Source: Escherichia coli
GTDB taxonomy: Bacteria; Pseudomonadota; Gammaproteobacteria; Enterobacterales; Enterobacteriaceae
DNA length: 64,000 nucleotides
NCBI RefSeq assembly: GCF_024700885.2
Contig: NZ_CP117016.1
Strand: one strand, 5' to 3'
Shown piece by piece: positions 9,610 to 39,743 of the stretch; positions within the stretch are counted from its first letter, which is position 1, and the number at the start of each line of letters is the position of its first letter. Position numbers and translations under genes: made by a program. Under the pieces are notes generated by a model. The model saw only the letters and a list, made by a program, of their open reading frames with translations, was not told where the DNA came from and searched no databases.

Positions 9610-10554
9610 TCAAGGGTACGGGTCCGCTTCGTTTGATTTGCGTGTTTTTAACAATTTTAAAACCCAGACATACTGTTCCGGATGTGGCCCCACCAAAATT
9701 TCCACTGTTTTGTTCATTTGTCGGGCAATCATTTTATTGTCCGCGCTGGCAATGCAAGCATCCATTGGTGGCCGAATTTCAATAGTCAGGAGATGTTTTT
9801 TTTCATCATAAACCGGGAAAAGTGGTATAATCATAGCCTGACTGATGTTCATCAGACGTCCAATGATTGGTAATGTCGCTTTATAGGTCGCAAAAAAATC
9901 AGCAAATTCACTGTATTCAGGACCATGATCCTGATCTGGGAGGTAATATCCCCAGTATCCCTGGCGTACTGACTGAATAAATGGTTTTATCCCATCCTCC
10001 CGGGCATGTAAGCGCCCCCCGAATTTACGCCGTACTGAATTCCAGACATAATCAATCACTGGATTTCGTTGCTGATGAAACATGGCGGCCATTTTTTTTC
10101 CCTGAGCTGCCAGCAACATTGCAGGAATATCCACGCTCCAGCCATGGGGAACCAGAAAAATCACATTTCTATTATTGTGTCGAATTTCCTCAAGAATTTC
10201 GAGGCCTTTCCAGAACACTCGTTTCTGGAACTTTTCCGGACCACGAATTGCCAGTTCTGCCATCATCACTATGGATTGCAATGCTGTGGCAAACATTTTG
10301 TCGACAATTATTTCCCGTTCTGTATCACTCTTTTCTGGGAAACAAAGCGATAAATTAATCGTCGCCCTGCGACGAGCTTTTTTGCTCAATCTGCCCACCC
10401 AACGCCCTATTTTTGCCAAGACAGGATCTCTGAATGAAGGGGGAAACATTGAAATACCTGCAATCATTCCCAAAAGGAACCATGTAGACCAGTAAACAGG
10501 GGAAAGGTAATTTTTCTTAAATTCAGGAATAAACTCAGATTTATATTTTTTCAT
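9610..10554 (-). CDS. Lipid A secondary acyltransferase, LpxM/MsbB family (msbB2-like paralog)
   Basis: Lauroyl/myristoyl acyltransferase motifs (FLVPHGWSVD, YLPDQDHGPE); virK fragment immediately upstream as in shf-virK-msbB2 modules. Confidence 0.8.
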   Translation of the reverse strand: MKKYKSEFIPEFKKNYLSPVYWSTWFLLGMIAGISMFPPSFRDPVLAKIGRWVGRLSKKARRRATINLSLCFPEKSDTEREIIVDKMFATALQSIVMMAELAIRGPEKFQKRVFWKGLEILEEIRHNNRNVIFLVPHGWSVDIPAMLLAAQGKKMAAMFHQQRNPVIDYVWNSVRRKFGGRLHAREDGIKPFIQSVRQGYWGYYLPDQDHGPEYSEFADFFATYKATLPIIGRLMNISQAMIIPLFPVYDEKKHLLTIEIRPPMDACIASADNKMIARQMNKTVEILVGPHPEQYVWVLKLLKTRKSNEADPYP

Positions 10555-10618
10555 TATTTAGTGCGAATGCCTCTACCAAAATTATCATTACTGTTTTATT
10601 CAGAGAATACATCAAACC

Positions 10619-11233
10619 TTAATTTAAATTCTGATGTTCTGAGTGTACAGGATATGCATCCAAAGAGCGGATAGTAGTTTCATGGATATAATCCAGCAAA
10701 GCGTATCGTTTTCGGTACTCAGAGCGTTTTTTACTGGCTATATCGCTTAGCGGCTTTCGAATCACCTGGGTTGGTAATCTGTACCAGTCACCACAGGTTT
10801 TTCCTGCTACAGACTCCCAGAAATCACTATAGACCGCAACAAAGGTTTTGCGTTTCTGATACCAGTATCTCAATTGCCGGAAAACATGACTGTGCTCACT
10901 GACTGCCAGACACTCAGAGATATTGCAAGCTTTCATCAACGCACAAAATGCTTCAAAAATAATCCGTTTTGGGAAAATCCCATAACAGGCCCGGGTTGCG
11001 CACCGAATAACATCAGGTCCGGTATTTTTAGGGGCTCCCTGTAATCCGCCAATAAAAGCAATGTGTCCATTTTGAGTCAGAATGACTGAAAATGTTAACC
11101 GGGCAATAACTGTTTTATTGTAAAACAATGACAACATCAACTCTCCTTCCCGGTCAAAACCACTGGGAGAACACTGGATATCAAAATTCTCTCCATCTTT
11201 CCCGATGAATTGGACTAATGATACCGATTTTTG
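10619..11233 (-). pseudogene. virK: virK-like (DUF535) gene, C-terminal part only, cut by IS1
   Basis: Open frame runs from the IS1 boundary (...FIGKDGENFDIQCSP...) to the stop at 10619; N-terminal half absent. Confidence 0.55.
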
Positions 11234-11288
11234 GGTAATGCTGCCAACTTACTGATTTAGTGTATGATGGTGATTTTAAGGTGCTTGC

Positions 11289-11564
11289 GTGGCTTCCATT
11301 TCCATCAGATGTCCTTCCTGCTCCGCTACTGAAGGCGTGGTGCGTAACGGCAAAAGCACTGCCGGACATCAGCGCTATCTCTGCTCTCATTGCCGTAAAA
11401 CATGGCAACTACAGTTCACTTACACCGCCTCTCAGCCCGGTACGCACCAGAAAATCATTGATATGGCCATGAATGGCGTCGGATGTCGCGCCAGTGCACG
11501 CATTATGGGCGTTGGCCTCAACACGGTTTTACGTCACTTAAAAAACTCAGGTCGCAGTCGGTAA
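11289..11564 (+). CDS. insA: IS1 InsA
   Basis: [40 protein letters not shown]... Confidence 0.9.
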
Positions 11565-11986
11565 CCTCGCGCATACAACCGGGCAGTGATGTGATTGTCT
11601 GCGCTGAAATGGACGAACAGTGGGGCTACGTCGGTGCTAAATCACGTCAGCGCTGGCTGTTTTACGCGTATGACAGGATACGGAGGACGGTTGTGGCGCA
11701 CGTCTTCGGTGAACGCACTCTGGCCACACTGGAGCGTCTTCTGAGCCTGCTGTCGGCCTTTGAGGTCGTGGTATAGATGACGGATGGCTGGCCGCTGTAT
11801 GAATCACGCCTGAAGGGAAAGCTGCACGTTATCAGCAAGCGTTACACTCAGCGCATTGAGCGACATAATCTGAATCTGAGACAACATCTGGCAAGGCTGG
11901 GACGGAAGTCACTGTCGTTCTCAAAATCGGTGGAGCTGCATGACAAGGTCATCGGGCATTATCTGAACATAAAACACTATCAGTAA
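11483..11986 (+). pseudogene. insB: IS1 InsB frame with premature stop (TAG at 11774-11776)
   Basis: Copy 2 reads ...VVIWMTDGW (TGG); copy 1 reads ...VVV(stop)MTDGW (TAG). Confidence 0.85.
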
Positions 11987-12408: not shown

Positions 12409-12746
12409 AACGGCATCCATTTTACAAAAGATGGCCGTCTGTGTATTTATAATGAATACCTTCTACATGTTTAGAGTGCATAATCCACGACAAGGCGATA
12501 TCCTAAAAATTAGCTAGCAGGCAACTTTGATGGCATAGATAATGTTTTTAGTAAAAAAGAGTTGACTTAATATAATACAGCCTCTTCCTACATAAGAAGG
12601 AATGTGCTCACAAAAAAAAACATTAGTCTGCTTCCTGTTCTTACAATAATCAGTATTATGTATTTTATTTATATAGCAAAATATGCTTGTTACACCTGTC
12701 ATAATTAGGCATGGTAAAATTATTGACTGAACCCTGGGGGAGAAAG

Positions 12747-13004
12747 ATGCACAGTGATTATTATAATATGGTTTTTGGTGAAAAATTGGCCAATATTTTA
12801 TATGAAGCTAACTCTCAATTTTTTTACGAGAGAAATGTCATAGAAGAGGCAGTCAACGCTTTATTCTGTGAGCGTGAAATAATAAACAACAAGAACATAA
12901 TAAAGAAGCTGATGTTCTTTTTGTCAGATGTTAATCACACCAAGAAAGATGTTGTTCAGAGCGCACTTAATATTATCATTGACATTACATCAGGTGATAT
13001 TTGA
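12747..13004 (+). CDS. Hypothetical protein (85 aa), AT-rich
   Basis: ORF with GGGGGAG RBS; no recognisable family. Confidence 0.3.
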   Translation: MHSDYYNMVFGEKLANILYEANSQFFYERNVIEEAVNALFCEREIINNKNIIKKLMFFLSDVNHTKKDVVQSALNIIIDITSGDI

Positions 13005-13264
13005 GATTTTACATAAAAGATAATCTCTCAAGGAGTCTTATCTGAAAACGAAATATATAGTCCCTCTCGTTTTGTAATATCGATTGGCTTTGTTGAATCG
13101 GTTACGTACCCCGGAGCCGGTCATATTTTCAGGTAATACACACGCTTTCAGACATTTCGGCTTTCGTCATTTTGGTATCATGGGCATAGCTTCTGCTACC
13201 TGACCATCATAATCACGCAGCTTCAGTGAAGCAGTGACCACCTGTTTAACCCGGTGTATCGTTA

Positions 13265-13465
13265 TGATCTTATCCAGCAATAATGGACACGCGGCTAAGT
13301 GAACCGCCCCGGGTTTCCTGGAGAGTGTTTTATCTGTGAACTCAGGCTGCCAGATCATCGTTTCCGATGGAAGCATAATAAGCTTTTTCTGCTTCTGCCG
13401 GTGGGATATGGCCCTGCCTTTCCAGCAATCGTCGATTGTTATACCAGTCCACCCACGTGAGTGTG
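13265..13465 (-). mobile_element. IS3-family right-end remnant (transposase C-terminus plus terminal IR)
   Basis: Minus strand encodes ...QYDELTTLTWVDWYNNRRLLERQGHIPPAEAEKAYYA then IR ending ...TGTCCATTATTGCTGGATAAGATCA. Confidence 0.65.
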
Positions 13466-13754
13466 GTCAGCTCATCATACTGACACGTGCATTACCCCTA
13501 CCGCGATAATGCAACCGTACAATATAGGGCGTTTCCTAAACGCAGCCCTCATCACTCCAATCCAACAAGACACAGCATTTTTGATCACGAAGAAAGACAA
13601 ATAATTTCCGTAAATGTTTCCGTTGTTACAAATAACAACAGTGTTTTACATTTCTTTGGCCTCAGGCCCGCGCATGTTGCCATTCGATGTCATTTTCCTG
13701 ACTCGTTTCTTCTTTATGGTGTAGTGTGATCTTCACTTTATGGATGCTAACAAT

Positions 13755-15113
13755 ATGAAAAGAAAAATTATTCCCGTGCTAATCGGTTGTACGCTCTCTT
13801 TCTCTGCCCTGGCGGCACAACCTACGGCTGAGCGCTATGTCGTCAGTTTTCCAGAAGGCACGCACGTGAACTACGCCGGCGCATTTGCCAGTGCATTCCC
13901 GAACGGCCTTCCGGTTGGGATAGGTTCTGGCCTGCTGTTCACCGGTAAACAGGGCGATGCCCTGACATTCGCAACCATTACCGATCGCGGTCCGAACGCG
14001 GATTCACCGAAAGAGGGGAAAAACGAAACTAAAATTTTCGTTACGCCAGATTTCGCGCCGCTGCTGATGACGATTCGTGTACAAAACGGCAAAGCGGAGG
14101 CCATCGATCCCCGTCCTCTGCATGACGATAAAGGCGCGATCAACGGTCTGCCGCTGGCAAGCGACGTGATTGGCTCCACCAATGAAGTGGCCTTCAGCGA
14201 CACGTTACATAGACTGAAGGGGGATAATCGCGGGCTGGATACGGAAGGGATCACTCCGGATGGTAAAGGAGGTTACTGGCTGTGCGATGAGTATGGCCCG
14301 TTCCTGATTAACATCGACAGTAAAGGGAAAATCCTGGCAATCCACGGTCCGCAGGCGGCGGAAGAGGAAAAAGCGATTGCGGGCGGTTTGCCAAATATCC
14401 TCAAATGGCGTCAGGCGAACCGCGGCTTTGAAGGCCTCACCCGTATGCCGGACGGGCGTATTATTGTCGCCGTGCAAAGTACGCTGGATATCGACGCTAA
14501 GAGCAAGAAAAAGGCGCTGTTTACGCGTCTGGTGAGCTTCGATCCGGCAAGCGGAAAAACCGCGATGTACGGTTATCCCATCGACAGCGCGGCCTACAGC
14601 AAAAACAGCGACGCTAAAATCGGAGACATCGTGGCGCTCGATAACCAGCACATCCTGCTGATCGAACAGGGAAGAGATAAAAACAACAGAATGCGTAACC
14701 TGATTTACGAGGTCGATCTCAATAAGGCGAGCGACCTGTCAGGCTTCGACAAGCCGGGTGAGTATCCGGAGTTTGATGATGAGAAAACCCTGTCACAGCG
14801 CGGCATTACCCTTGCGCAGAAAACGCAGGTTGTTGATCTGCGCTCCTTGGGCTGGCAGCAGGAGAAGGCTGAAGGGTTGGCGCTGATCGACAGCAAAACG
14901 CTGGCGGTGGCGAACGATAACGACTTTGGCGTGAAGGTGGCGATGCAACATCCGGTCGAGGGCAAGACATTCAAGGATTATCGGGTGAACGCGGAAGGAA
15001 AGCTGACGCTTGACGACAAGCAGGTTGAAACGACCCTCAGAGTGAAGCCACTGGAGAAACCGGAGTCTGACAGTGAACTGTGGATTGTGACGCTGCCGGA
15101 AGCGTTGAAATAA
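13755..15113 (+). CDS. Secreted phytase-like / esterase-like beta-propeller protein (452 aa)
   Basis: Signal peptide (MKRKIIPVLIGCTLSFSALAAQP); repeated D-x-G/beta-strand blocks; family assignment from memory. Confidence 0.5.
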   Translation: MKRKIIPVLIGCTLSFSALAAQPTAERYVVSFPEGTHVNYAGAFASAFPNGLPVGIGSGLLFTGKQGDALTFATITDRGPNADSPKEGKNETKIFVTPDFAPLLMTIRVQNGKAEAIDPRPLHDDKGAINGLPLASDVIGSTNEVAFSDTLHRLKGDNRGLDTEGITPDGKGGYWLCDEYGPFLINIDSKGKILAIHGPQAAEEEKAIAGGLPNILKWRQANRGFEGLTRMPDGRIIVAVQSTLDIDAKSKKKALFTRLVSFDPASGKTAMYGYPIDSAAYSKNSDAKIGDIVALDNQHILLIEQGRDKNNRMRNLIYEVDLNKASDLSGFDKPGEYPEFDDEKTLSQRGITLAQKTQVVDLRSLGWQQEKAEGLALIDSKTLAVANDNDFGVKVAMQHPVEGKTFKDYRVNAEGKLTLDDKQVETTLRVKPLEKPESDSELWIVTLPEALK

Positions 15114-15351: not shown

Positions 15352-16736
15352 TTATTCAGCTGGCAGTGCTATGCGCCACGGAAGCAGTTCGCTGACCCGG
15401 TTGACCGGCCAGTCTGCTATGACGCCAGGCACATGGCGAAGGTAGCTTTCTGGATCCACGTCATTCAGTTTGCACGTCCCGATCAGGCTGTACAGTAGCG
15501 CTCCCCGCTCACCACCATGGCCAGAGCCGAAGAACAGGGTCTTCATCTTTTCACGCAACCAGCTTTCCAGGGATTTCAACAGCGGTTTCGTTTTTCGCTG
15601 ACGTTCAGCAAGCCGCTGCTCTGCCGGCATTCCCCTTATATCCGCCTCTATGGCGTACAACTGACCGATCTGCTCCAGGGCTTCTTCCGTCAGTGCTGAC
15701 GGGATGCGGACGTGCACATCGTGGATCTTTCGGCGGGCATGAGCCCAGCAGGCAGCTTCCGTTATCCCACCATTGCGATACAGCTCGTTGAACCCGGCGT
15801 ACGCATCCGCTTGCAGCACACCGCTGAAGCAAGCAAGATGAGTCTGCGGATGGATGCCTTTTCTGTCCGGGCTGTAAGCGAACCTCACTGCAGGTGCCAA
15901 CGCTGACCCGGCATTGCGGTCATCACGAACATACGCCCACAACCGCCCGGTCTTCGTCTTCTTATTACCCGGCAGCAGTACCTGGACCGGGGTATCATCG
16001 GCATGGAGTTTGCCGTCAGTCATGACATAGCCATGAAGCGCCTCTTCCAGCGGAGACAGCAGCCGGCAGCATGCATCCACCCAGCCCGACAGCAGTGAAC
16101 GGCTCAGCTCCACACCTTGCCGGCCGTATATTTCTGACTGGCAATACAGCGGGGTGTGCTCTGCATACTTCGAGGTCAGCACGCGGGCCAGCAGCCCCGG
16201 TCCGGCGATACCCCGCTCGATGGGCCGCGAAGGTGCAGGTGCCTGCACGATGGCATCGCACTGAGTACAGGCATGTTTTTCCCGTACCGTCCGGATAACC
16301 CGGAAGGCGCTACGCATCAACTCCAGCTGTTCGGCGGTATCCTCGCCCAGATAGCTCAGTGAACCGCCGCAGTTCGGGCAGCACGGCGCCGCAGGCAACA
16401 GTCGCTTTTCGTCACGGGGTAGTGATTCAGGGAACGGCTTACGGGTGCGGGTCTGACGCAACGGACGCTGTACTGCCGGGTCATACACCCTACCAGTCAG
16501 CGTATCGCTCTCTTTCTGAAGCCGGTTCAGATCGGCTTCCATTTGTGCGATACGGCGGGAGACTTTTTCGGAACGACTGCCGAAGTTCATCCGGCGGAGT
16601 TTATCCAGCTGCGCCTGCAGATGTCTATTTCGCGCTCCCGGTTGCTCAGCTTTTCCTGCAGGGCGTGGATCAGCGCTTCCTGTTCGGCCAGGCGCTGTTT
16701 CAGCAGGAAGATGTCGTCAGAAGAGATTTCGTTCAT
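15352..16736 (-). pseudogene. IS66 TnpC transposase with frameshift near the N-terminus
   Basis: MNEISSDDIFLLKQRLAEQEALIHALQEKLSNRERE... continues in another frame as ...QLDKLRRMNFGSRSEK...; shift lies around 16600-16630. Confidence 0.75.
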
Positions 16737-16785
16737 AAGCCCGTATTTTACCGGGCTTATTCTGTGACAACCAGGATAAAGAGAT

Positions 16786-17133
16786 TTACAGCATGGTCAG
16801 GGAGGTCAGCAGCCGCTTGGGCTGTCGCCAGTCGATACCTTCCAGCAGCATCGCCAGCTGCGCCTGCGTAAGGAACACTTTGCCATCACGGGCTGACGGC
16901 CAGGCGAAGCGCCCACGCTCCAGCCGTTTGGTCAGGAGGCACAGTCCGTCACCGGTGGACCACAGCAGTTTAACCTGACTGCCGCTGCGGCCCCGGAAAA
17001 TGAAAACATGGCCGGACATGGGATCGTCTTTCAGCGCCGTCTGTACTTTCGCAGCCAGGCCGTTGAAGCCATTTCTCATATCGGTGATACCGGCAACCAG
17101 CCAAATTTTGGTCCCGGAAGGTAACGGGATCAT
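16786..17133 (-). CDS. IS66 Orf2 (TnpB)
   Basis: MIPLPSGTKIWLVAGITDMRNGFNGLAAKVQ... Confidence 0.85.
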   Translation of the reverse strand: MIPLPSGTKIWLVAGITDMRNGFNGLAAKVQTALKDDPMSGHVFIFRGRSGSQVKLLWSTGDGLCLLTKRLERGRFAWPSARDGKVFLTQAQLAMLLEGIDWRQPKRLLTSLTML

Positions 17134-17468
17134 CGCTTCAGTTCCTGTATCAGCAGAGTCAGGAGCTTTTCGCTGACATTGCCATTGAAGCGGAGCGTCC
17201 CGTGCCGGAACGTTACCTCACAGCTGATACTGAGGGTTTCCGGGTCCTCTGCGAGCGATTCTGGCTGTTCGGCAGCTGCATCGGGAGTCACAGGAAGTAG
17301 CTGGGGGCTCTCTGAAGAAGGTAATAGCAGCTTTCCCTCGCGCCATTGTTGTCGCCATTTGAACAACAGATTGGCGTTAATGCCATTTTCAAGAGCAAGT
17401 TTTGAGATGGATATCCCGGGTTCACAGGAGGCAGCAACGAGCTGCTGTTTAAATTCGGGAGGATAATT
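17130..17468 (-). pseudogene. IS66 Orf1 (TnpA) without a canonical in-frame ATG start
   Basis: Frame encodes ...PEFKQQLVAASCEPGISISKLALENGINANLLFKWRQQWREGKL but is preceded by TGA with no ATG. Confidence 0.6.
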
Positions 17469-17864: not shown

Positions 17865-18299
17865 TTACAGCCTCTGTAACGGATTATCAGCCCTGGCATC
17901 TTCCGACGGCACCTCCTGCCGCCCCCACGCCCTGCTGTATACCCCGGTACCGCAGCGTGGGCAGCACTTTTCCCCCTCATAATCTTCGTCACACATCACA
18001 CAAAACCACTTTCTCACCTTCACCGTATAATCCGGAACCGTCATGCCCTGCAGATGCAAACGACGGGCCTCTTTCTCCGCCGGGTCAAGCCAGGTACATC
18101 GCAGCAGGATTTTTTCAGCGACAGTCATCTGGTCATGTTCAAACCACGGTGGTTGTCCGTCATTGCCCCGCTGAAGTGTTAACGGGCATCCACAGGACAC
18201 ACAGCACAAAACGTCCTGTCGGTTGTGCTTCGCAGCTTCTTTCGCCGTAACAAAATGGCCTTTGCTGTCATTCGCCATATAACAGTTCAGAATTCGCAT
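17865..18299 (-). CDS. Cys-rich zinc-ribbon protein (144 aa), paralog of the next gene
   Basis: CxxC...PWFEH...WxCxxC...YxGExxCxxCxTG pattern shared with 18287-18694; AGGAGG RBS. Confidence 0.55.
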   Translation of the reverse strand: MRILNCYMANDSKGHFVTAKEAAKHNRQDVLCCVSCGCPLTLQRGNDGQPPWFEHDQMTVAEKILLRCTWLDPAEKEARRLHLQGMTVPDYTVKVRKWFCVMCDEDYEGEKCCPRCGTGVYSRAWGRQEVPSEDARADNPLQRL

Positions 18300-18694
18300 A
18301 TTTCCTCCTGAGTTGTCCGGGGAATACTGAATCCTCCGGTCTGGCAGTGTGTGCAGTACTGCTCCCCATAATAATCGTGGTGACATTGTCTGCAGTGCCA
18401 GCTGGCTTTACGCACCACGGGTAAGGCATCCGATACGAATTGCTGCAGACGTTTAATCAACTGTATTTCTCTGCGCTCCGGCCTGACATAAGGGCACTGT
18501 TGACCGTGCTCTGTCAGCCTGTCGTCAGTGTGTTCAAACCAGGGAAGTTCAGTGTCGTATTGCGGATGGTATCTGAGTGCACTGCCACACAAGTGGCAGG
18601 TGTAGTTAGCATAAGGTGCGTCCTGTGCAGTACGGGCGCCCGTCAGACGTCCGTTGCCATCAAGAGCGATAAAGGATTTTGCGTACATAGTCAT
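18287..18694 (-). CDS. Cys-rich zinc-ribbon protein (135 aa), paralog
   Basis: Same Cys/PWFEH pattern; overlaps the downstream paralog start by 13 bp. Confidence 0.55.
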   Translation of the reverse strand: MTMYAKSFIALDGNGRLTGARTAQDAPYANYTCHLCGSALRYHPQYDTELPWFEHTDDRLTEHGQQCPYVRPERREIQLIKRLQQFVSDALPVVRKASWHCRQCHHDYYGEQYCTHCQTGGFSIPRTTQEEICEF

Positions 18695-18947
18695 ATTCCT
18701 TAGCCGCCAGACGACACGCAGGCAACAGCCGTCCCGGTACGGGCAGCGTGGTCAGGGTGTGAATGGCGGTTCAGTTAAAATCTGGACTGGAGTTTGGGTA
18801 AAGCAGGCTGGTTGCTGTTACAGCACTGTGGTTGTCACACAATGGAACACTGACGTAAAAAACAGTCAGTGGGCGAGTGGATACATCGTTGCCGCCAGAC
18901 AACAACCCATACTTTTGGTTTGCCGGATATTGGCGCGCCAGTCGTGC

Positions 18948-19517
18948 TCAACTCCGGCTACAGCCAAAATTGCGCTCACCGGTGCAGTGAGCTTTGGTAT
19001 GCTCTTTCGCCAGATAGTCAGCACGTTCCAGCACTTGCTGAAAGCCGGTGTCATCATTACGCGCCAGCCACACCGCCGGCCAGGCCGGAAAATGCACCAG
19101 CGTGGCATGGCACCCGACATCCACTCCCAGGGCACTGCACCACGCCTGTTTAATCATCCCGGCCAGAGACTCCGGAGCGCGGTAATCACCGGCACGACAC
19201 CAGGTATCCCGGTTGACCAGCAGCATCAGGTGATAGTGTTTTTTACCTTTGAACTCCCCAAACTCCCGGGCCCAGACGTAATGCAGGGGGGTGGGATGCA
19301 CGCGTTTACCTTTCCGATGCTTACGTTTCTGGTAAGCGTCGATTCGGGCTTTCAGGGCATTGATGAAGCGGGATATCACAGCTGCGTCCGTTGCTGCCGG
19401 TACATCCGGGAGACGCAGGTCAACCCGCAATGCCGTCAGGCGGGGATGAACATTCAGTGCGTGCCGCACCGTCTCACGAATACGTTGCTGCCAGAAGGGG
19501 TTGTATTTGTAGGTCAT
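18948..19517 (-). CDS. Inovirus Gp2-like / YagK-YfjJ family protein
   Basis: LTALRVDLRLPD...HYHLMLLVNRD... resembles CP4-type prophage YagK/YfjJ; GGAGA RBS before MTYKYNPF. Confidence 0.6.
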   Translation of the reverse strand: MTYKYNPFWQQRIRETVRHALNVHPRLTALRVDLRLPDVPAATDAAVISRFINALKARIDAYQKRKHRKGKRVHPTPLHYVWAREFGEFKGKKHYHLMLLVNRDTWCRAGDYRAPESLAGMIKQAWCSALGVDVGCHATLVHFPAWPAVWLARNDDTGFQQVLERADYLAKEHTKAHCTGERNFGCSRS

Positions 19518-21144
19518 GGTTAAATCTCCGTATGGTTCATACGGAATAGCCACGTCGTAAAAAATGCGCAGAGTCCCTGAAGTGACCTCCGGCAGGACAC
19601 TGTCTCAGGCACTCTGTGATAACCCGAACGGTCGTCTCCGGACTGACGGTTGAATTTTCAGCGTCGTTTTTTAATGTAAAAAACCGGTTACGGGTAAGGC
19701 TGTGAGGAGGGAGTGATGGTGATACGCAAAAAGAAGTGCAGGGATTGTGGAAACGCGATTACTCATAATACAGTGTGTTGCCCGTATTGTGGTTCTGTCG
19801 ACCCCTTCGGCTACTACCGGAATACAGACCGTATCGTTACCATACTGCTGGCGCTGATTATTGTGGTCCTGCTGACTACTGTCAGCGTCAGTGTGTGTAT
19901 ACTGTGTAGCTGGTGAGATAACGGTTCATGTATCCCCTGAGCTGACAGTGTACCGTGTATATTAAGCGTAACCGACAGGTTCTCCTTCATACCATATTAA
20001 ATTTTCCAGGGATTGCCGCTGCCTTATTTCGTCTCATACAGGAAAACTCATCTGGGTTTCTGACAAATACGCGAAACTCACAGCCCCTCAATATCAACCA
20101 CACGTTGTAAGCCGGTAATACCTGAAAATCAGCCTATTACCGCCCACGCCTCCGGCACCATTCCCTTTTGATTTCGAATTCTTTGTTGTCGCTATACCGC
20201 TTAATGTTCCCGGTCCTCCGGTGCAGATAACACCGGAGTCATCGTAGCGCTGCTTCAATATTCAGGTGACATATTTCCAGACGGAAGCCGGCGCGCGATC
20301 GTAAAGTTTGTTCATTGTCAGTTCTGCCAGCCGGTTGTCAACGGCAGAGTTAAAGGCTTCCAGCTCCGCAAGGGTAAGTTTATAACGCGTGTGGGAATTC
20401 ACTTTTCCCGCGTCTCCTGACGTATTACGGGCTGCCACTTACCTGGTGTCCCGCAATACAGCCTTAGTGTTCCGTTATCGGGGATCCGGACGCACCGCAA
20501 CAACCGGGGAAGTATTTCTGGTTTAGAGCATTGTCAAGAGGGATTTCTCAGCCCCTCACTCACCGCTCAGTCTCAGGGCAGGAGCATTAATACGCTCAGT
20601 TCATGTCTTATACAGGAATGGGCACAGGGGGAGCTGGCGTGTCACTGCTGATTTTACGCATCAGCGTTCATGTATCTGCACTCTGATACATGAACGATTC
20701 ACAGCGCTCTGTTACCGGAGAGATTTACTCTCTTAGCTTACTCTGGCAAATCCTTTACGTTACTCTCTGATGACTTCTTATATTTATAATACCAATCAGA
20801 CAGCCTTATCCCATCGGTGATATCAGTCTCCTCCTCGCCAGGAACGGGCTGACTCACTGTAACCACCTCCGAAAACAACTCTGCAATTATCAGAACGCCT
20901 GCTTCTCTCCCTGTCCTCACGAAAACTATCCCCTCTTTATCGCGCGTGCGTGCGGAAGCATCTTTTCGCAACAACCACCCGGTATACCGGTACGGCTCAG
21001 CCACCGCAACCTCCCCGTTTATCTCCTGGCGGTCACATTCCCGATTATTTTTTACGTTTCTCCCCGGTTGTTATGCCGGTGAAGGTGGCGCGCTGTTTTC
21101 ATGACCACACCGGCTGGTTTAACAACATCCGGAGGAACATTCTC

Positions 21145-25263: not shown

Positions 25264-25480
25264 GTTTATAGTGGTTAATGGTCTGCGAAAAGGCAGCTGA
25301 ATCTCTTCATCATGCAGAACGGAATTGCACACAACGGACTGATACTTCTCTGGCGGATGAGAGAGGGGAAGCATTTATGTCCGGGAAAAACCACTTTATC
25401 TGACCATGCTGTTTTGTACCTGCCGGTATCCACATTTGTGGGTACCGGCTTTTTTATTCACCCTCTGTAAGGAAAAGCTG

Positions 25481-28327
25481 ATGAAACGACATCTGAACAC
25501 CAGCTACAGGCTGGTATGGAATCACATTACGGGCACCCTGGTGGTGGCTTCCGAACTGGCGCGCTCACGGGGAAAACGCACCGGTGTGGCGGTTGCGCTG
25601 TCTCTTGCTGCTGTCACGTCAGTCCCGGTACTGGCTGCTGACACGGTCGTACAGGCGGGAGAAACCGTGAGCGGCGGAACACTGACAAATCATGACAACC
25701 AGATTGTCTTCGGTACGGCCAACGGAATGACCATCAGTACCGGTCTGGAGTATGGGCCGGATAACGAGGCCAATACCGGCGGACAATGGATACAAAATGG
25801 CGGTATCGCCAACAACACTACTGTCACCGGTGGTGGTCTTCAGAGAGTGAATGCCGGAGGAAGCGTTTCAGACACGGTTATCAGTGCCGGAGGCGGACAG
25901 AGCCTTCAGGGGCAGGCAGTGAACACCACTCTGAACGGCGGTGAGCAGTGGGTACATGAAGGCGGGATTGCAACGGGTACCGTCATTAATGAGAAGGGCT
26001 GGCAGGCCGTCAAATCCGGCGCAATGGCAACCGACACGGTTGTGAATACCGGCGCGGAAGGGGGACCGGATGCAGAAAATGGTGATACCGGGCAGTTTGT
26101 TCGCGGAAATGCCGTACGTACCACTATCAATGAAAATGGTCGTCAGATTGTGGCTGCTGAAGGAACAGCAAATACCACTGTGGTTTATGCCGGCGGCGAC
26201 CAGACGGTACACGGGCATGCGCTGGATACCACACTGAATGGCGGTTACCAGTATGTGCACAACGGAGGCACAGCCTCTGACACGGTTGTAAACAGTGACG
26301 GCTGGCAGATTGTCAAGGAAGGTGGTCTGGCGGATTTCACCACCGTTAACCAGAAAGGCAAACTGCAGGTGAACGCCGGTGGTACAGCCACGAATGTCAC
26401 CCTGAAGCAGGGAGGCGCACTGGTCACCAGTACGGCGGCAACCGTCACCGGCAGCAACCGTCTGGGCAATTTCACTGTGGAAAACGGTAATGCTGACGGT
26501 GTTGTTCTGGAGTCCGGTGGTCGCCTGGATGTACTGGAGGGCCATTCAGCCTGGAAAACACTGGTGGATGACGGCGGAACCCTGGCAGTGTCTGCCGGTG
26601 GTAAGGCAACAGATGTCACCATGACATCCGGTAGTGCCCTGATTGCAGACAGTGGTGCCACTGTTGAGGGGACCAATGCCAGCGGTAAGTTCAGTATTGA
26701 TGGCACATCCGGTCAGGCCAGCGGACTGCTGCTGGAAAATGGCGGCAGCTTTACGGTTAATGCCGGAGGACTGGCCAGCAACACCACTGTCGGACATCGT
26801 GGAACACTGACGCTGGCTGCCGGGGGAAGTCTGAGTGGCAGAACACAGCTCAGTAAAGGTGCCAGCATGGTACTGAATGGCGATGTGGTCAGTACCGGCG
26901 ATATTGTTAACGCAGGGGAGATTCGCTTTGATAATCAGACGACACCGGATGCCGCGCTGAGCCGTGCTGTTGCAAAAGGCGACTCCCCGGTAACGTTCCA
27001 TAAACTGACCACCAGTAACCTCACCGGTCAGGGTGGCACCATCAATATGCGTGTTCGCCTTGATGGCAGCAATACCTCTGACCAGCTGGTGATTAATGGT
27101 GGTCAGGCAACCGGCAAAACCTGGCTTGCGTTTACAAATGTCGGAAACAGTAACCTCGGGGTGGCAACCTCCGGACAGGGTATCCGGGTTGTGGATGCAC
27201 AGAATGGCGCCACCACAGAAGAAGGTGCGTTTGCCCTGAGTCGCCCGCTTCAGGCCGGCGCCTTTAACTACACCCTGAACCGTGACAGCGATGAAGACTG
27301 GTACCTGCGCAGTGAAAATGCTTATCGTGCTGAAGTCCCCCTGTATACATCCATGCTGACACAGGCAATGGACTATGACCGGATTCTGGCAGGCTCCCGC
27401 AGCCATCAGACCGGTGTAAACGGTGAAAATAACAGCGTCCGTCTCAGCATTCAGGGCGGTCATCTCGGTCACGATAACAACGGCGGTATTGCCCGTGGAG
27501 CCACGCCGGAAAGCAGCGGCAGCTATGGCTTCGTCCGTCTGGAGGGTGACCTGCTCAGAACAGAGGTTGCCGGTATGTCTCTGACGACAGGGGTGCATGG
27601 TGCCGCAGGCCATTCTTCCGTTGATGTTAAGGATGATGACGGTTCCCGCGCCGGCACGGTCCGGGATGATGCCGGCAGCCTGGGCGGATACCTGAATCTG
27701 ACACACACGTCCTCCGGCCTGTGGGCTGACATTGTGGCACAGGGAACCCGCCACAGCATGAAAGCGTCATCGGACAATAACGACTTCCGCGCCCGCGGCT
27801 GGGGCTGGCTGGGCTCACTGGAAACCGGTCTGCCCTTCAGTATCACTGACAACCTGATGCTGGAGCCACAACTGCAGTATACCTGGCAGGGACTTTCCCT
27901 GGATGACGGCCAGGATAACGCCGGTTATGTGAAGTTCGGGCATGGCAGTGCACAACATGTGCGTGCCGGTTTCCGTCTGGGCAGCCACAACGATATGAGC
28001 TTTGGTGAAGGCACCTCATCCCGTGACACCCTGCGCGACAGTGCAAAACACCGTGTGCGTGAACTGCCGGTGAACTGGTGGGTACAGCCTTCTGTTATCC
28101 GCACCTTCAGTTCCCGGGGTGACATGAGCATGGGGACAGCCGCCGCCGGCAGTAACATGACGTTCTCACCGTCCCGGAATGGCACGTCACTGGACCTGCA
28201 GGCCGGACTGGAAGCCCGTGTCCGGGAAAATATCACCCTGGGCGTTCAGGCCGGTTATGCCCACAGTGTCAGCGGCAGCAGCGCTGAAGGTTATAACGGT
28301 CAGGCCACGCTGAATGTGACTTTCTGA
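25481..28327 (+). CDS. flu: Antigen 43 autotransporter adhesin (948 aa)
   Basis: [35 protein letters not shown]... signal/passenger repeats and C-terminal beta-barrel ending ...GQATLNVTF. Confidence 0.9.
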
Positions 28328-28397
28328 TAATCAGGTCACTCTCCTTCAGGCCCCGGTCATCATGACCGGGGCTTTTTACTTTCAGGGAGCAACAGAT

Positions 28398-28556
28398 ATG
28401 CCGGGTTGTACATCACGTTTATTGCCCGAAGGCCCTTTCTCACGCGAACAGGCTGTTGCCGTCAAAACAGCTTACCGCAATGTATTTACTGAAGATGACC
28501 AGGGAACATATTCCCGGCTGGTTATCCGTAATGCTGAAGGTCAGTTGCGCTGGTGA
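28398..28556 (+). CDS. Small hypothetical protein (52 aa)
   Basis: ORF with AGGGAG RBS between flu and the DUF932 gene. Confidence 0.35.
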
Positions 28557-28710
28557 TGCCGGAACACAGCTTAATACTCAGCTCGCCAGTTAAGGGCTTC
28601 TCAGACAATAAACGTCATTCATTTCATCTGTCAGGCCGCGTCTTCTCCGGGAGACGCAGCTTTTTCATTTATTACACCAGTAAATCGTAACCACCGATAA
28701 GGAGCAAATT

Positions 28711-29529
28711 ATGCGACTAGCCAGTCGTTTTGGTTATGCGAACCAGATACGCCGTGACCGTCCGCTGACACACGAAGAACTGATGCACTATGTTCCCAGT
28801 ATTTTCGGTGAAGACCGGCATACTTCCCGCAGTAAACGATATGCGTACATTCCCACCATCACCGTACTGGAAAGCCTGCAGCAGGAAGGTTTTCAGCCAT
28901 TCTTCGCCTGCCAGACCCGCGTGCGCGACCCGGGCCGCCGGGGATACACAAAACACATGCTGCGTCTGCGGCGGGCCGGAGAGATAAACGGAGAACATGT
29001 CCCTGAAATTATTCTGCTCAACTCTCATGACGGTACCTCCAGCTACCAGATGCTGCCGGGTTACTTCAGATTCGTCTGCCAGAATGGCTGCGTCTGCGGT
29101 CAGTCTCTGGGGGAAGTGCGTGTTCCACACCGGGGAAATGTGGTGGAGAAAGTTATCGAAGGGGCTTACGAAGTGGTGGGGGTTTTTGACCGGATTGAGG
29201 AAAAGCGTGATGCCATGCAGTCGCTGGTCCTGCCGCCACCGGCACGCCAGGCGCTGGCACAGGCGGCACTGACTTACCGTTATGGTGACGAACATCAGCC
29301 AGTCACCACCGCTGACATTCTGACGCCACGACGCCGGGAGGATTACGGTAAGGACCTGTGGAGTACTTATCAGACCATCCAGGAGAATATGCTGAAAGGC
29401 GGGATTTCCGGCCGCAGTGCAAAAGGAAAACGTATCCACACCCGTGCCATTCACAACATCGACACCGATATTAAGCTCAACCGCGCATTGTGGGTAATGG
29501 CAGAAACGCTGCTGGAGAGCCTGCGCTGA
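28711..29529 (+). CDS. DUF932-family protein (YfjQ/YafZ-like)
   Basis: Position and sequence typical of CP4-type prophage DUF932 proteins. Confidence 0.6.
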   Translation: MRLASRFGYANQIRRDRPLTHEELMHYVPSIFGEDRHTSRSKRYAYIPTITVLESLQQEGFQPFFACQTRVRDPGRRGYTKHMLRLRRAGEINGEHVPEIILLNSHDGTSSYQMLPGYFRFVCQNGCVCGQSLGEVRVPHRGNVVEKVIEGAYEVVGVFDRIEEKRDAMQSLVLPPPARQALAQAALTYRYGDEHQPVTTADILTPRRREDYGKDLWSTYQTIQENMLKGGISGRSAKGKRIHTRAIHNIDTDIKLNRALWVMAETLLESLR

Positions 29530-29870
29530 TGCAGCATGTCCCTGAAGGCGTGATTCAGGCACCAGAATCACCCGACGCCCCGGAGGCGCTGCCGGGGTGT
29601 CGTTCCATTTCTGATGATGACCTGTGCGCCTGGTGTACCCGTCTGCTTTACCGTCCCGGAGAAATCAGTCTGTGCAGACTGAGTATACAGGCAATGGCAT
29701 CTGGCCATCCGTCTGTGACCGGAACGGTTACGCGTACGGCTGTCCGGAATTTCAGCCGAATATCATTCATCCCTGATATTACCGGGTCATCACGGTCAGT
29801 GATGAACGTGATGTTGCCAGGTCCCGACCTTTACTCCCTCTCATTTATTCACATTACAAGGATTTCATAC

Positions 29871-30344
29871 ATGAAAACATTGTCTCAGAACACCACCTCT
29901 TCGGCCTGTGCACCGGAGACTGACCTGCAACAACTGGTTGCCACCCTCGTCCCTGATGAACAGCGCATCAGCTTCTGGCCGCAGCACTTTGGCCTCATTC
30001 CACAGTGGGTGACCCTGGAGCCCCGTGTCTTCGGCTGGATGGACCGTCTGTGCGAAGACTACTGCGGTGGTATCTGGAATCTGTACACCCTGAACAACGG
30101 CGGGGCATTTATGGCACCCGAACCGGATGACGATGATGACGAAACATGGGTACTGTTCAATGCCATGAACGGTAACCGCGCTGAAATGAGTCCGGAAGCT
30201 GCCGGCATTGCTGCCTGTCTGATGACGTACAGTCATCATGCCTGTCGTACGGAGTGTTATGCCATGACGGTCCATTATTACCGGCTGCGGGATTACGCCC
30301 TGCAGCATCCGGAATGCAGCGCCATTATGCGCATCATCGACTGA
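29871..30344 (+). CDS. Antirestriction protein, KlcA/ArdB-like (YfjX family)
   Basis: MKTLSQNTTSSACAPETDLQQLVATLVPDEQRISFWPQHFG...; upstream frame open to 29490 but homology begins here. Confidence 0.65.
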   Translation: MKTLSQNTTSSACAPETDLQQLVATLVPDEQRISFWPQHFGLIPQWVTLEPRVFGWMDRLCEDYCGGIWNLYTLNNGGAFMAPEPDDDDDETWVLFNAMNGNRAEMSPEAAGIAACLMTYSHHACRTECYAMTVHYYRLRDYALQHPECSAIMRIID

Positions 30345-30359
30345 ATGGAGAGAAGTACA

Positions 30360-30836
30360 ATGCAACAGCTTTCCTTTCTGCCCGGAGAGATGACGCCCGG
30401 CGAGCGCAGCCTCATTCAACGGGCCCTGAAAACCCTGGACCGCCATCTTCATGAACCCGGCGTGGCCTTCACCTCCACCCGTGCGGCACGAGAATGGCTG
30501 ATTCTGAACATGGCGGGACTGGAGCGTGAAGAGTTCCGGGTGCTGTATCTGAACAACCAGAATCAGCTGATTGCCGGTGAAACCCTCTTCACCGGCACCA
30601 TCAACCGCACGGAAGTCCATCCCCGTGAAGTGATTAAACGCGCCCTGTATCACAATGCCGCTGCTGTGGTGCTGGCACACAATCACCCGTCCGGTGAAGT
30701 CACACCCAGCAAGGCAGACCGCCTTATCACGGAACGTCTGGTACAGGCACTGGGCCTGGTGGATATCCGGGTGCCGGACCATCTGATAGTCGGTGGCAGC
30801 CAGGTTTTCTCCTTTGCCGAATATGGTCTGCTTTAA
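30360..30836 (+). CDS. RadC-like JAB-domain protein (YeeS/YkfG family)
   Basis: JAMM motif HNHPSGEVTPSKADRLIT; GGAGAG RBS. Confidence 0.75.
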   Translation: MQQLSFLPGEMTPGERSLIQRALKTLDRHLHEPGVAFTSTRAAREWLILNMAGLEREEFRVLYLNNQNQLIAGETLFTGTINRTEVHPREVIKRALYHNAAAVVLAHNHPSGEVTPSKADRLITERLVQALGLVDIRVPDHLIVGGSQVFSFAEYGLL

Positions 30837-30898
30837 CCCGTCACAACCACATCACACCTGTTTTCACTTTTATCTTCTGTCTTCAGAGGTATCCCACT

Positions 30899-31120
30899 AT
30901 GAAAATCATCACCCGTGGCGAAGCCATGCGTATTCACCGTCAGCATCCGGCATCCCGTCTTTTTCCGTTCTGTACCGGCAAATACCGCTGGCACGGCAGT
31001 GCTGAAGCGTATACCGGTCGTGAAGTGCAGGATATTCCCGGTGTGCTGGCCGTGTTTGCAGAACGCCGTAAGGACAGTTTTGGTCCGTATGTCCGGCTGA
31101 TGAGCGTCACCCTGAACTGA
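30899..31120 (+). CDS. YeeT-like DUF987 protein (73 aa)
   Basis: Position and size as yeeT upstream of cbeA. Confidence 0.6.
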   Translation: MKIITRGEAMRIHRQHPASRLFPFCTGKYRWHGSAEAYTGREVQDIPGVLAVFAERRKDSFGPYVRLMSVTLN

Positions 31121-31282
31121 TGTTCCGTCACCCGGAAAACGAGTACGACTGGCTGAGCTCAGACGCCGCTGTGGATGAGGCCCTGCTCATCAACGAATAC
31201 ACCTTCACCGAAGCCGGTCTGTGCACCGGCTGACCCGTCATCGTTAAACTATCATTCACCGATTTTCTGTGAGGATTTTATC

Positions 31283-31651
31283 GTGTCAGACACACTTTCC
31301 GGGACAACGCATCCCGATGACAATGACGACCATCCCTGGTGGGGACTACCCTGCACAGTGACGCCCTGTTTCGGCGCCCGTCTGGTGCAGGAGGGTAACC
31401 GGTTGCATTACCTTGCCGACCGTGCCGGTATCAGAGGCCGGTTCAGAGATGCGGATGCGTACCCTCTGGACCAGGCCTTTCCGCTGCTGATGAAACAACT
31501 GAAATTAATGCTCACCAGTGGTGAACTGAATCCCCGCCATCAGCATACCGTGACACTGTATGCGAAGGGGCTGACCTGTGAAGCCGACACCCTCGGCTCC
31601 TGTGGTTACGTTTATCTGGCTGTTTATCCGACACCTGAAACGAAAAAGTAA
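31283..31651 (+). CDS. cbeA: CbeA/YeeU-family antitoxin (122 aa), GTG start
   Basis: [50 protein letters not shown]...; GAGGA RBS before GTG. Confidence 0.75.
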
Positions 31652-31740
31652 ACCACCAGAATAACCTTCTGCTCCGGCCTGGTGTTTTCACCACGCCACT
31701 GTCCCATTTTTTATCTCTGCATATCAGGAAAATCTTCAGT

Positions 31741-32115
31741 ATGAAAACATTACCCGACACGCATGTACGGGAGGTATCGTGCTGCCCGTCTCCCGTCACC
31801 ATCTGGCAGACACTGCTCACCCGGTTACTGGACCAGCATTACAGCCTTACGCTGAATGACACACCGTTCGTGGATGAACGCGTGATTGAGCAGCATATTG
31901 AGGCAGGCATTTCACTGTGTGATGCAGTGAACTTTCTCGTGGAAAAATACGCACTGGTACGAACTGACCAGCCGGGATTCAGCGCAGGAGCCTCGTCGCA
32001 GTTAATCAACAGCATTGATATTCTCCGGGCTCGCCGGGCAACAGGCCTGATGACCCGCCACAACTACAGAACGGTGAACAATATCACCCTGGGTAAGTAT
32101 CCGGAGGCGAAATGA
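31741..32115 (+). CDS. cbtA: CbtA/YeeV-family toxin (124 aa)
   Basis: [43 protein letters not shown]...; follows the antitoxin. Confidence 0.75.
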
Positions 32116-36598: not shown

Positions 36599-36603
36599 TT
36601 GAT

Positions 36604-39600
36604 TTGAAAGAGAAAATAATGAGTAAGTACAACGAATTAGTTAAGAAGCTAAAAGAAATTTTTCAGATTGATCGACCAGAACTGGATTTCGGTATTTATC
36701 GTATTTTAAATGCACGTGCTGATGAAATTAACGACTATCTGGATAATAAGCTGAAGGCCAAAATCCAGTCTGCGCTGGCGGATGCAGGAAATGCCAATAA
36801 ATCAGAATTAGAACATCAGTTGCAACTGACAATAAAAGCGGCAACTGATGCGGGTGTGGACCCTGCTGATAGCCCGAAAGTACAGGAGCTTAAAAAGCAA
36901 CTGGCGGCTATGGCATCCGGAGCAAATGAGCATGAAAATGCAGTATTTTCCCATCTGCTGACTTTCTTTTCGCGTTATTATGACAACGGCGATTTTATCA
37001 GCAAACGCCGTTATAAAGGTAATACCTACGCCATCCCTTATTCTGGCGAAGAAGTGATGTTGCACTGGGCAAATAAGGACCAGTACTACATTAAAAGCGG
37101 TGAAAACTTTGCTAATTATTCATTTAAATTAGATGATGGTCGTAAAGTTAGCTTTAAATTGCTCGCAGCGGACACAGCAAAAGATAACCGTAAAGATAAT
37201 GAATTAGATCGCTGCTTTGTACTTATTGAGCCGCATGTTCGTACCAAAATTGATGAAGAAGGCGATGAGTACGAACAAGAATATAAGCCAGTAGAAGTGG
37301 TGAAAACTTCATCTGTGGTTGACGGTAAACTCGTTGAAACAGAAGAGTTAGTTATTCACTTCGAATATAAGGCCATGAAAAAGGGCACTAAGCAGGATGC
37401 TTTAGTGCAGTCCGCTATTTCAACAATTCTGGCTGATAAAACAGTTCAACAGCATTGGGTTGATCTTGCTAAACGTGCGCCAACAGAAAAAAATCCGTCA
37501 CGTACAGAGTTGGAGCGTCATCTTACAACTTATACCCAGCGTAATACAGCAGACTACTTTATTCATAAAGATCTCGGTGGTTTTTTAACTAACGAACTGG
37601 ATTTTTATATTAAAAATGAAGTAATGAATCTCGATAATGTGCAAAATGCAGAAGTGTTTGCCAATATTGAGAAACAATTGCGCATGATTCAATGTTTGCG
37701 TACTGTTGCGCTGGAACTCATTGCATTTTTGGCACAAATTGAGAATTTCCAGAAGAAACTTTGGACTAAGAAGAAGTTTGTTGTTTCAAGTAATTACTAT
37801 ATTACTATGGACAAAATAAGTTCAGAGTTTTACAGTGAAATAATTAATAATGAAAAAATAGTCCAAGAATGGATTGAATTAGGCATCTTAGATGAGAAGC
37901 CATCTACCTCTGATGTGGAGTTGCTCAAGTTTGCAACAGTTAATTTATCTCATTTAAACGGAGATCTAAGGAAAAAAATATTAAATAGTATCAATGATAT
38001 TGACGATAATGTTGATGGCGTTTTTATTAATGGTGATAATTATCAAGCGTTAAATCTTTTGAAGAAAAAATATAATTCCGTAATTGATTGTGTCCATATA
38101 GATCCACCATATAACACAGATACTAGTGGTTTTTTATATAAAAATAGCTTTAAGCATTCAAGTTGGCTGAGTATGATGGATAGCCGTTTGCTTTTTGTTA
38201 AAAATTTACTCAGTGAAAATGGTGTATTTTTTTGTCATATTGATGAAAATGAATATGAGCGACTTTATTTAATTAATAAACAGTTAGGTCTTATCGATGC
38301 AGGGACAATTATTTGGGATAAACGCAATCCCATGAATGGTGGTAGTGGCATTGCGATTCAACATGAATATACTACTTGTTTTACAAAGAACATGATTTCT
38401 ATTAATAAGAAAAATGAGAATGTATTAGAAATACTCGAATATGCAAAATTAATTAAGAATAAATATCCTGTAATTAACAGTGAAGCAAAGAAAAAATTTT
38501 ATGATTGGGTAACAAAGAATAAAAAACTTACTGGAGGTGAACAAGCTTACAAATATATCGATGAGAAAGGTCGAGTGTACCAGAGTGTCAGCCTCCGTGC
38601 CCCAGAGCCAAGGACTGACAAGAAATTCTATATACCATTAATTCATCCAGTTACCGGGAAACCATGCGCTATGCCACCAAATGGTTTTTCTCGTACCCCA
38701 GAAACATTAAAAGATATGATGGATAAGGGGGATATACTATTTGGTGTTGATGAAACAACGCAACCTAGACAGAAAGCATATTTATATGCTGACGCTAAAA
38801 AGCAAATAACATCAATAATTCAGGATGCTAAAAAAGGAAAAACTCAAACAACTCATCTTGGAATTGATTTTCCTTATTGTCACTCAACTTCTTTATATAA
38901 TTATTTAATTGGGAGTGCATCTCATAATAAAAATGAGATAATATTAGATTTTTTTGCTGGTTCAGGAACAAGTGGCCACTCAGTCATAGAGTTGAATCGT
39001 AAGGATGCGGGTTCAAGGAAATATATACTTGTTGAACAGGGGGAGTATGCACAAAATGTAACTTTAAGCAGGTTGAGAAAAGTTATATTCAGTAGCAATT
39101 GGAAAGATGGTAAAGCTATGGATTCAACGACAGGCTCATCTCATATACTTAAAGTTATGAAAATAGAAAGTTACGAAGATGTATTAAATAGCCTTCGATT
39201 TGAACAACAAAAAGAAATAAAAGATCTTTTTGATACAGTGAATGAATCAGTAGCAAATGAGTATTTAATAAAATATATGCTTGAAACAGAAAGCAAAGGT
39301 TCACTACTCAGTACTGATAATTTCAAAAAACCATTTAACTACGAAATGGATATTGCGACGGATTCCGCCGGTGCCACTGAGCGTAAAAACATCGATTTAG
39401 TTGAAACTTTCAACTATCTCATTGGTTTACATGTGAAATCCATCGAATCCAATATCGAACGTGGCTATGTGCGTGTTGAAGGAATGCTACCAACAGGCGA
39501 GCGTACCCTTATTCTGTGGCGCGATTGCGACAAGATCGGTTATGAAGAATTGAATAAATATGCCAACCGATTCGATTTATATGCAAAAGAAAACACGTTC

Positions 39601-39741: not shown

Positions 39742-39743
39742 GA

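Follow-up and report, generated by a model that had tools for sequence, protein, structure and literature searches.

A gene that stands by itself between remnants of insertion sequences raises two questions, namely what its product does and how it came to lie there. Such a gene is found at positions 13755-15113 of the Escherichia coli DNA analysed here (64,000 nucleotides of one strand, hereafter called the window). The original prediction, made from the letters of the window, described a secreted protein with a signal peptide and beta-propeller-like repeats, assigned it tentatively to a phytase-like family and considered it a plausible host-interaction factor.

The gene and the island that carries it

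Among the open reading frames of the window, the one under study spans 13740-15113 on the + strand. The ATG at 13755, which opens the 452-aa protein (MKRKIIP...), is the RefSeq start and is kept in the orthologues of other genera. The alternative start at 13740 was rejected, as it has no counterpart in orthologues and E. lignolyticus displays no upstream ATG. With a dN/dS ratio of about 0.10 against the Enterobacter orthologues and 1728 homologues at E<=1e-5, a chance reading frame is excluded: the 452-aa protein first proposed is encoded by a real, intact E. coli gene under purifying selection. The gene is already annotated and has already been published as an ORF, orf34 of the Shigella SRL-type pathogenicity island (SRL PAI), where the table of the corresponding paper gives 99.8% for it. 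Annotation of the flanks was taken from RefSeq on the 100%-identical chromosome of E. coli MLI114 (human stool, Mali), the window coordinates being the locus coordinates minus 2. The gene and its immediate flanks are as follows.

13129-13259, - strand: IS5/IS1182 transposase remnant (RefSeq of MLI114)
13342-13473, - strand: IS3-family transposase remnant, the upstream boundary (RefSeq pseudogene in MLI114)
13755-15113, + strand: phytase-like gene, 452 aa
15235-15312, - strand: DUF6404 gene remnant, the downstream boundary (RefSeq of MLI114)
15352-17414, - strand: IS66 element, composed of tnpC (frameshifted here), tnpB and tnpA (ORFs and RefSeq of MLI114)

The position between an IS3 remnant and IS66 is therefore as first described, with the DUF6404 remnant as a further element on the IS66 side. 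The tnpC gene (15352-16736, - strand) is intact in strains SK1144 and ATCC 25922; because it is frameshifted here, the IS66 copy at this locus is probably inactive. The downstream order orf34-IS66(orf35-37)-orf38-Gp2/YfjJ-Hha-AlpA is shared with the published SRL PAI. Nothing differs in sequence from the SRL-type relatives, and the arrangement departs from theirs on the upstream side. The gene usually lies between fecI and IS66 in most strains, and other strains show the order virK-capU-polysaccharide deacetylase (shf)-IS3-fecEDCBARI ahead of it; here IS1 has deleted the capU-shf-IS3-fec segment, and an lpxM (msbB2-like) paralogue adjoins an IS1-truncated virK (9610-11986). No tRNA is present in the 64 kb of the window, nor are the island integrase and the tRNA end seen in it.

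The remainder of the island displays a varied content. A small gene of the YmgB/AriR family (biofilm/acid-response regulator; 12711-13004, + strand) is located just upstream of the phytase-like gene, where the DNA between IS remnants is very rich in AT (about 32-36% G+C). Two adjacent paralogues on the - strand (17865-19553), each combining DUF7828 with a zinc-ribbon, stand beside a gene of the inovirus Gp2 family, and this DUF7828 group is kept in every island variant seen. The interval 25406-32000 holds an Ag43/Cah autotransporter adhesin and then CP4-type prophage-remnant genes (DUF932, antirestriction, a JAB-domain protein and a YeeU/CbtA toxin-antitoxin pair). The three co-directional genes of 33707-43124 (+ strand), coding for an SNF2-family helicase (963 aa), an N6/N4 DNA methylase (1045 aa) and a ResIII/DEAD helicase (1126 aa), resemble a DISARM- or restriction-like defence module lodged inside the island.

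Export signal, family and fold of the protein

The protein is acidic, with a mass of about 47 kDa, and can be divided into the following parts.

13755-13814, + strand: predicted Sec (SPase I) signal peptide, residues 1-20, cut after A-L-A (heuristic)
13917-14927, + strand: PF13449 Phytase-like propeller domain, residues 55-391 (Pfam limits, conserved columns and AF2 model)

The signal peptide was called heuristically from charge and hydrophobicity, low pLDDT and A-x-A conservation. By this measure it is tripartite: the n-region is K2R3K4, the hydrophobic core covers residues 5-18 (mean Kyte-Doolittle up to 2.4) and A18-L-A20 precedes the predicted cleavage, the A-x-A motif being conserved among homologues. 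The AlphaFold pLDDT is 56 over residues 1-20 and at least 93 beyond. A lipoprotein reading of the motif 'LIGC' was rejected, a lipobox being unlikely because its Cys12 is not conserved in homologues. The announced signal peptide can thus be retained as one of Sec type, while the word 'secreted' is better replaced by Sec-exported and probably periplasmic.

The Pfam search produced a match to PF13449 ('Phytase-like', also named 'esterase-like activity of phytase') at E=2.8e-43 and 149.3 bits, for a cutoff of 27.6 bits, in which positions 4-284 of the 284 of the profile align to residues 55-391. No other Pfam family matched at E<=0.1, PF02333 (canonical beta-propeller phytases) and PF05787 (PhoX) included, and an NCBIfam search of the protein returned no match. 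The tentative family assignment is thereby confirmed over the whole profile; the domain search had been named as the check on it, and a different, well-characterised family, which would have refuted it, did not turn up.

The AF2 model is all-beta (pLDDT 94.7, pTM 0.91) and its structural matches consist of propellers only, so that, as far as the model can tell, the propeller-like character suspected at first is borne out. The matches themselves are distant. Foldseek against the PDB returned generic propellers only, with TM <=0.37, and among solved folds the nearest are those of YjiK, glutaminyl cyclase and a Ca2+-activated nucleotidase. The two best neighbours are not phosphatases, YjiK being of unknown function and the other being the glutaminyl cyclase, and no beta-propeller phytase is found among the best 60 structural matches. 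A single-sequence search of the PDB identified no related chain and a profile search gave blade-level NHL/'Pizza' matches only. Most of the best structural neighbours are presumably five-bladed; the model would correspond to a five-bladed core carrying a hairpin insertion and a C-terminal extension.

Conservation was analysed over 46 homologues, down to 29% identity. The residues conserved in at least 90% of these comprise an acidic set (D77, D162, E164, E179, E226, D291, E304, D327, E339, E373, D388 and D390) together with R78, N81, N222, R223, R258, K288 and K371; Y180 and Q305 are further conserved residues of the domain. The conserved columns are therefore mostly Asp/Glu plus Arg/Lys/Asn. 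In the same alignment no His or Cys that could act as a nucleophile is conserved, and among hydroxyl residues the only conserved candidate is Ser58. Propeller hydrolases that depend on Ca2+ employ a metal-plus-anion site and no covalent nucleophile, and we infer from the conserved residues the signature of a site of this kind. 'Phytase' is a family label and not a supported function, since no beta-propeller phytase ranks in the top 60 structural matches and neither PF02333 nor PhoX is matched.

Pho-box promoter, distribution and origin

The Pho box consensus, CTGTCAT-A(AT)A(TA)-CTGT(CA)A(CT), consists of two 11-bp repeats (PMC3465305). Candidate boxes were scored over 14 positions (CTGTCATnnnnCTGTMAY), and for each locus the highest-scoring sense-strand site no more than 200 nt from the start was retained. 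An alignment of the upstream regions of five genera displays one conserved block only, a direct repeat that corresponds to the Pho box of PhoB. A score of at least 12/14 is reached in 76% of the sense-strand upstream regions (79 orthologue loci, about 80 species), the control rates at the same threshold being 0.19% for shuffles, 0.07% for other 200-nt windows and 0% for the reverse strand. The box is situated 62-80 nt ahead of the start codon in most orthologues, and a 44%-identical homologue from another gammaproteobacterium carries a 12/14 box at -65. A de novo information profile yields TGTCAT-n4-yTGTCAy followed by 10 nt and TAnnnT, with no conservation further upstream, and in 51 of 72 orthologues the TAnnnT hexamer follows the box at a distance of exactly 10 nt. 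The -35 element is thus replaced by two 7-bp CTGTCAT-type direct repeats of 11-bp periodicity, placed 10 bp upstream of a -10 hexamer. The layout of K-12 phoA obtained with the same script is identical (box, 10 nt, TATAGT). The corresponding elements of the E. coli copy are given below.

13687-13704, + strand: predicted Pho-box-like PhoB site ATGTCATTTTCCTGACTC at the -35 position (repeats ATGTCAT and CTGACTC separated by TTTC), 11/14
13715-13720, + strand: -10 hexamer TATGGT, exactly 10 nt past the Pho box (orthologue spacing)

The second repeat of the E. coli site, CTGACTC, is degenerate. Taken alone, this 11/14 site is not above chance, 19 sites scoring at least 11 in the 64-kb window, and for this reason PhoB control of the E. 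coli copy rests on orthology. Its score equals that of ugpB, exceeds that of phoE and lies within the range of proven PhoB sites (ugpB 11/14, phoE 10/14 and phoB 12/14, from PMC3465305; phoA 13 and pstS 14). No sigma-70 -35/-10 pair was found in the region around the gene, as expected for an activator-dependent promoter. Taken together, these promoter sequences give strong support to Pho control in the orthologue family and make it probable for the E. coli copy. The new point is one of regulation, orf34 having previously been without assigned function or regulation: a PhoB-type promoter is conserved ahead of its orthologues. The Pho-box ORF c1153 of an APEC pst mutant was rejected as a candidate, since the CFT073 numbering falls around phoH, where no phytase-like gene is present. 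The RNA-seq of a preprint on phosphate limitation in ESKAPE bacteria covers Acinetobacter only.

Of 5426 complete E. coli genomes, 2261 (about 42%) contain the gene at an identity of 99% or more, with 2237 chromosomal and 66 plasmid copies; ST131 and ATCC 25922 are among the carriers. Strain K-12 lacks both this gene and the rest of the island and displays an IS1 junction next to fecI (fecI-ykiE-IS1F, then unrelated genes, yjhU and following; NC_000913.3 4518235-4519338). The Pho regulon maps based on K-12 (ChIP, array) can therefore not include it.

In other genera the homologues are single chromosomal genes, with identities of 90% in Enterobacter and Lelliottia, about 80% in Pantoea, Scandinavium and Pluralibacter, and 60-66% in Buttiauxella, Cronobacter, Serratia, Yersinia, Pectobacterium and others. 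The hosts of the orthologues are soil-, plant- and gut-associated Enterobacterales. The native neighbourhoods inspected (Pantoea, Cronobacter, Serratia and E. lignolyticus) display no conserved neighbours and none related to phosphorus. Homology at the DNA level with the Enterobacter loci extends from about 13600-13687 to the stop codon, and the gene has 54% G+C vs 48% for the window. These limits, together with the dN/dS ratio and the G+C contrast, argue for a functional cassette of promoter and gene acquired horizontally; the comparison indicates an Enterobacter-like lineage as the source from which E. coli gained the cassette, now located inside the SRL-type island. A version 99% identical to that of E. 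coli, with the E. coli-type Pho box, was also encountered on the 2971-bp contig CAJKJS010000287.1 of an 'uncultured Ruminococcaceae' MAG, where contamination from E. coli during binning is the most likely explanation.

Function of the exported propeller

The explanation favored here, to which we give slightly better than an even chance, is that of a PhoB-induced, exported periplasmic propeller of about 47 kDa which acts as a metal-dependent phosphoesterase and scavenges phosphate. Under phosphate limitation, PhoB~P would bind the direct repeat at 13687-13704, standing in for the -35 element, and would recruit RNA polymerase to the -10 hexamer at 13715-13720. In the exported protein the conserved Asp/Glu cluster would bind Ca2+ or another metal and the conserved Arg/Lys residues would bind phosphate, as judged from sequence conservation. 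Organic phosphate esters would then be hydrolysed in the periplasm and the freed phosphate, or a monoester product, would be imported. The most plausible guess at the substrate would be an ester derived from nucleotides or of glycerophospho type.

A phosphate-scavenging phosphoesterase is supported by domain fusions and by the induction of related proteins in phototrophs, in addition to the Pho box. The partners found in 37 multidomain homologues include choice-of-anchor I (13), a T9SS sorting tail (12), SLH (3) and LTD (1), as well as phosphoesterase or nuclease domains, namely the 5'-nucleotidase C-domain (3), a calcineurin-like phosphoesterase (2) and a ParB-like nuclease (1). Judging from these domains, the multidomain homologues are extracellular proteins and several are phosphoesterases. 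Choice-of-anchor I, the commonest partner, was discarded as a clue to activity, being an MSP130 Ca2+-binding propeller without proven activity. Secreted proteins described as phytase-like are reported from Nodularia (NSP_RS03145), Synechococcus WH8102 (NP_896855) and Phaeodactylum (PtPhos2/HASP1), where they count among the proteins that respond most strongly to phosphate starvation; all bear the same Pfam-type label, which is explicitly PF13449 for that of Nodularia only. Their strong induction parallels the Pho-box promoter of the E. coli gene, but they are likened to the E. coli protein by domain label, are more distant and often multidomain, and obey other regulators. No biochemically characterised member of PF13449 was found in the literature searched. 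At a single locus (L095, 657-7159), the gene for a 40%-identical homologue (P0134) is adjacent to, and divergent from, genes for a GDPD (UgpQ-like) and for a UgpBAEC-like ABC transporter, an anecdotal neighbourhood which hints at a link to glycerophosphodiester scavenging.

The phosphate-starvation signal could also belong to a periplasmic propeller that is not a phosphatase, for instance a non-catalytic protein binding Ca2+ or another ligand, or an enzyme acting on substrates other than phosphate esters. The closest solved folds (YjiK and glutaminyl cyclase), the frequent partnership with the MSP130-like choice-of-anchor I, the lack of a conserved His or Cys nucleophile with only Ser58 as hydroxyl candidate, and the fact that the literature searched records no activity for the family all agree with such a protein. 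However, a set of approximately 12 near-invariant Asp/Glu and 5 Arg/Lys residues, kept even in homologues of 30% identity, is more usual in a catalytic metal/anion site than in a scaffold. The fusions to bona fide phosphoesterases and the co-induction with alkaline phosphatases also count against this possibility, which we regard as rather unlikely. A true phytase, that is, a Ca2+-dependent beta-propeller enzyme freeing phosphate specifically from phytate (InsP6), is judged less probable still. The name used by Pfam and RefSeq, the propeller fold with its many conserved acidic residues and the Pho-type regulation would all suit it, and an orthologue is listed, by annotation only, as a 'phytase encoding sequence' in the phytate-degrading Pantoea brenneri; nevertheless, the PF02333 match and the structural similarity to beta-propeller phytases both failed, and one Pantoea strain degrades phytate without the gene.

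The role in host interaction put forward originally would make the protein a virulence factor of the island, such as an exported enzyme or an adhesin-like propeller acting on host molecules. Its appeal lies in the company of the gene (an SRL-type island with an lpxM paralogue, virK, the Ag43 autotransporter and fec), in the predicted export of the product and in the frequency of the gene in human and animal E. coli, ST131 included. Yet the orthologues, 60-90% identical, are ordinary single chromosomal genes of environmental or plant-associated Enterobacterales, placed in unrelated contexts without conserved neighbours, and the regulatory signal conserved with them, the PhoB-type promoter, is nutritional. 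Neither a dedicated secretion system nor an effector-type signal is linked to the gene, and its surroundings of IS remnants reveal the manner of its arrival rather than its role. The proposal is thus left unsupported and appears very improbable.

The favored phosphoesterase can be placed among several known propellers. The canonical beta-propeller phytases (PF02333; Bacillus PhyC / TS-Phy) are likewise exported propellers with many acidic residues and are linked to phosphate scavenging, but their HMM does not match the present protein and they do not rank among its best structural neighbours; they are six-bladed and operate by a Ca2+-dependent mechanism with no covalent intermediate. The YjiK / SdiA-regulated family (PDB 3QQZ, PF06977) is one of the nearest in fold but belongs to a different Pfam family and has no known Pho link. 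The soluble Ca2+-activated nucleotidase/apyrase SCAN-1/CANT1 (PDB 2H2N), also a fold neighbour, is eukaryotic and shares 12% identity with no sequence-level relationship. The alkaline phosphatases PhoX and Psip1 come close in character, as exported, Pho-regulated propeller phosphatases dependent on Ca2+ and also on Fe, and a phytase-like domain is appended to some Psip1 proteins. The phytase-like protein differs from PhoX by the lack of a PF05787 match, of the conserved Cys ligand and of a twin-arginine motif, its n-region being KRK.

A broader reading is offered more tentatively, at somewhat less than even chance: PF13449 may form its own class of Pho-regulated, exported, metal-dependent propeller phosphoesterases, extending from Enterobacterales to cyanobacteria and diatoms and distinct from PhoA, PhoD, PhoX, PafA, Psip1 and the true beta-propeller phytases. 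On that view, about 40% of E. coli strains would possess, on the SRL/fec island, an accessory member of the Pho regulon overlooked in work based on K-12.

The textbook picture of the E. coli Pho regulon was established in K-12. Should the conserved Pho-box promoter prove functional, some four strains in ten of the species would possess one more phosphate-starvation enzyme, encoded on an iron-uptake and virulence island and occasionally on plasmids. In practical terms the consequences are modest, the gene being annotated, common and without evident virulence link. The members of the PF13449 family are numerous, and phototrophs of ecological importance induce them strongly when starved of phosphate; E. 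coli offers a convenient organism in which to determine its activity.
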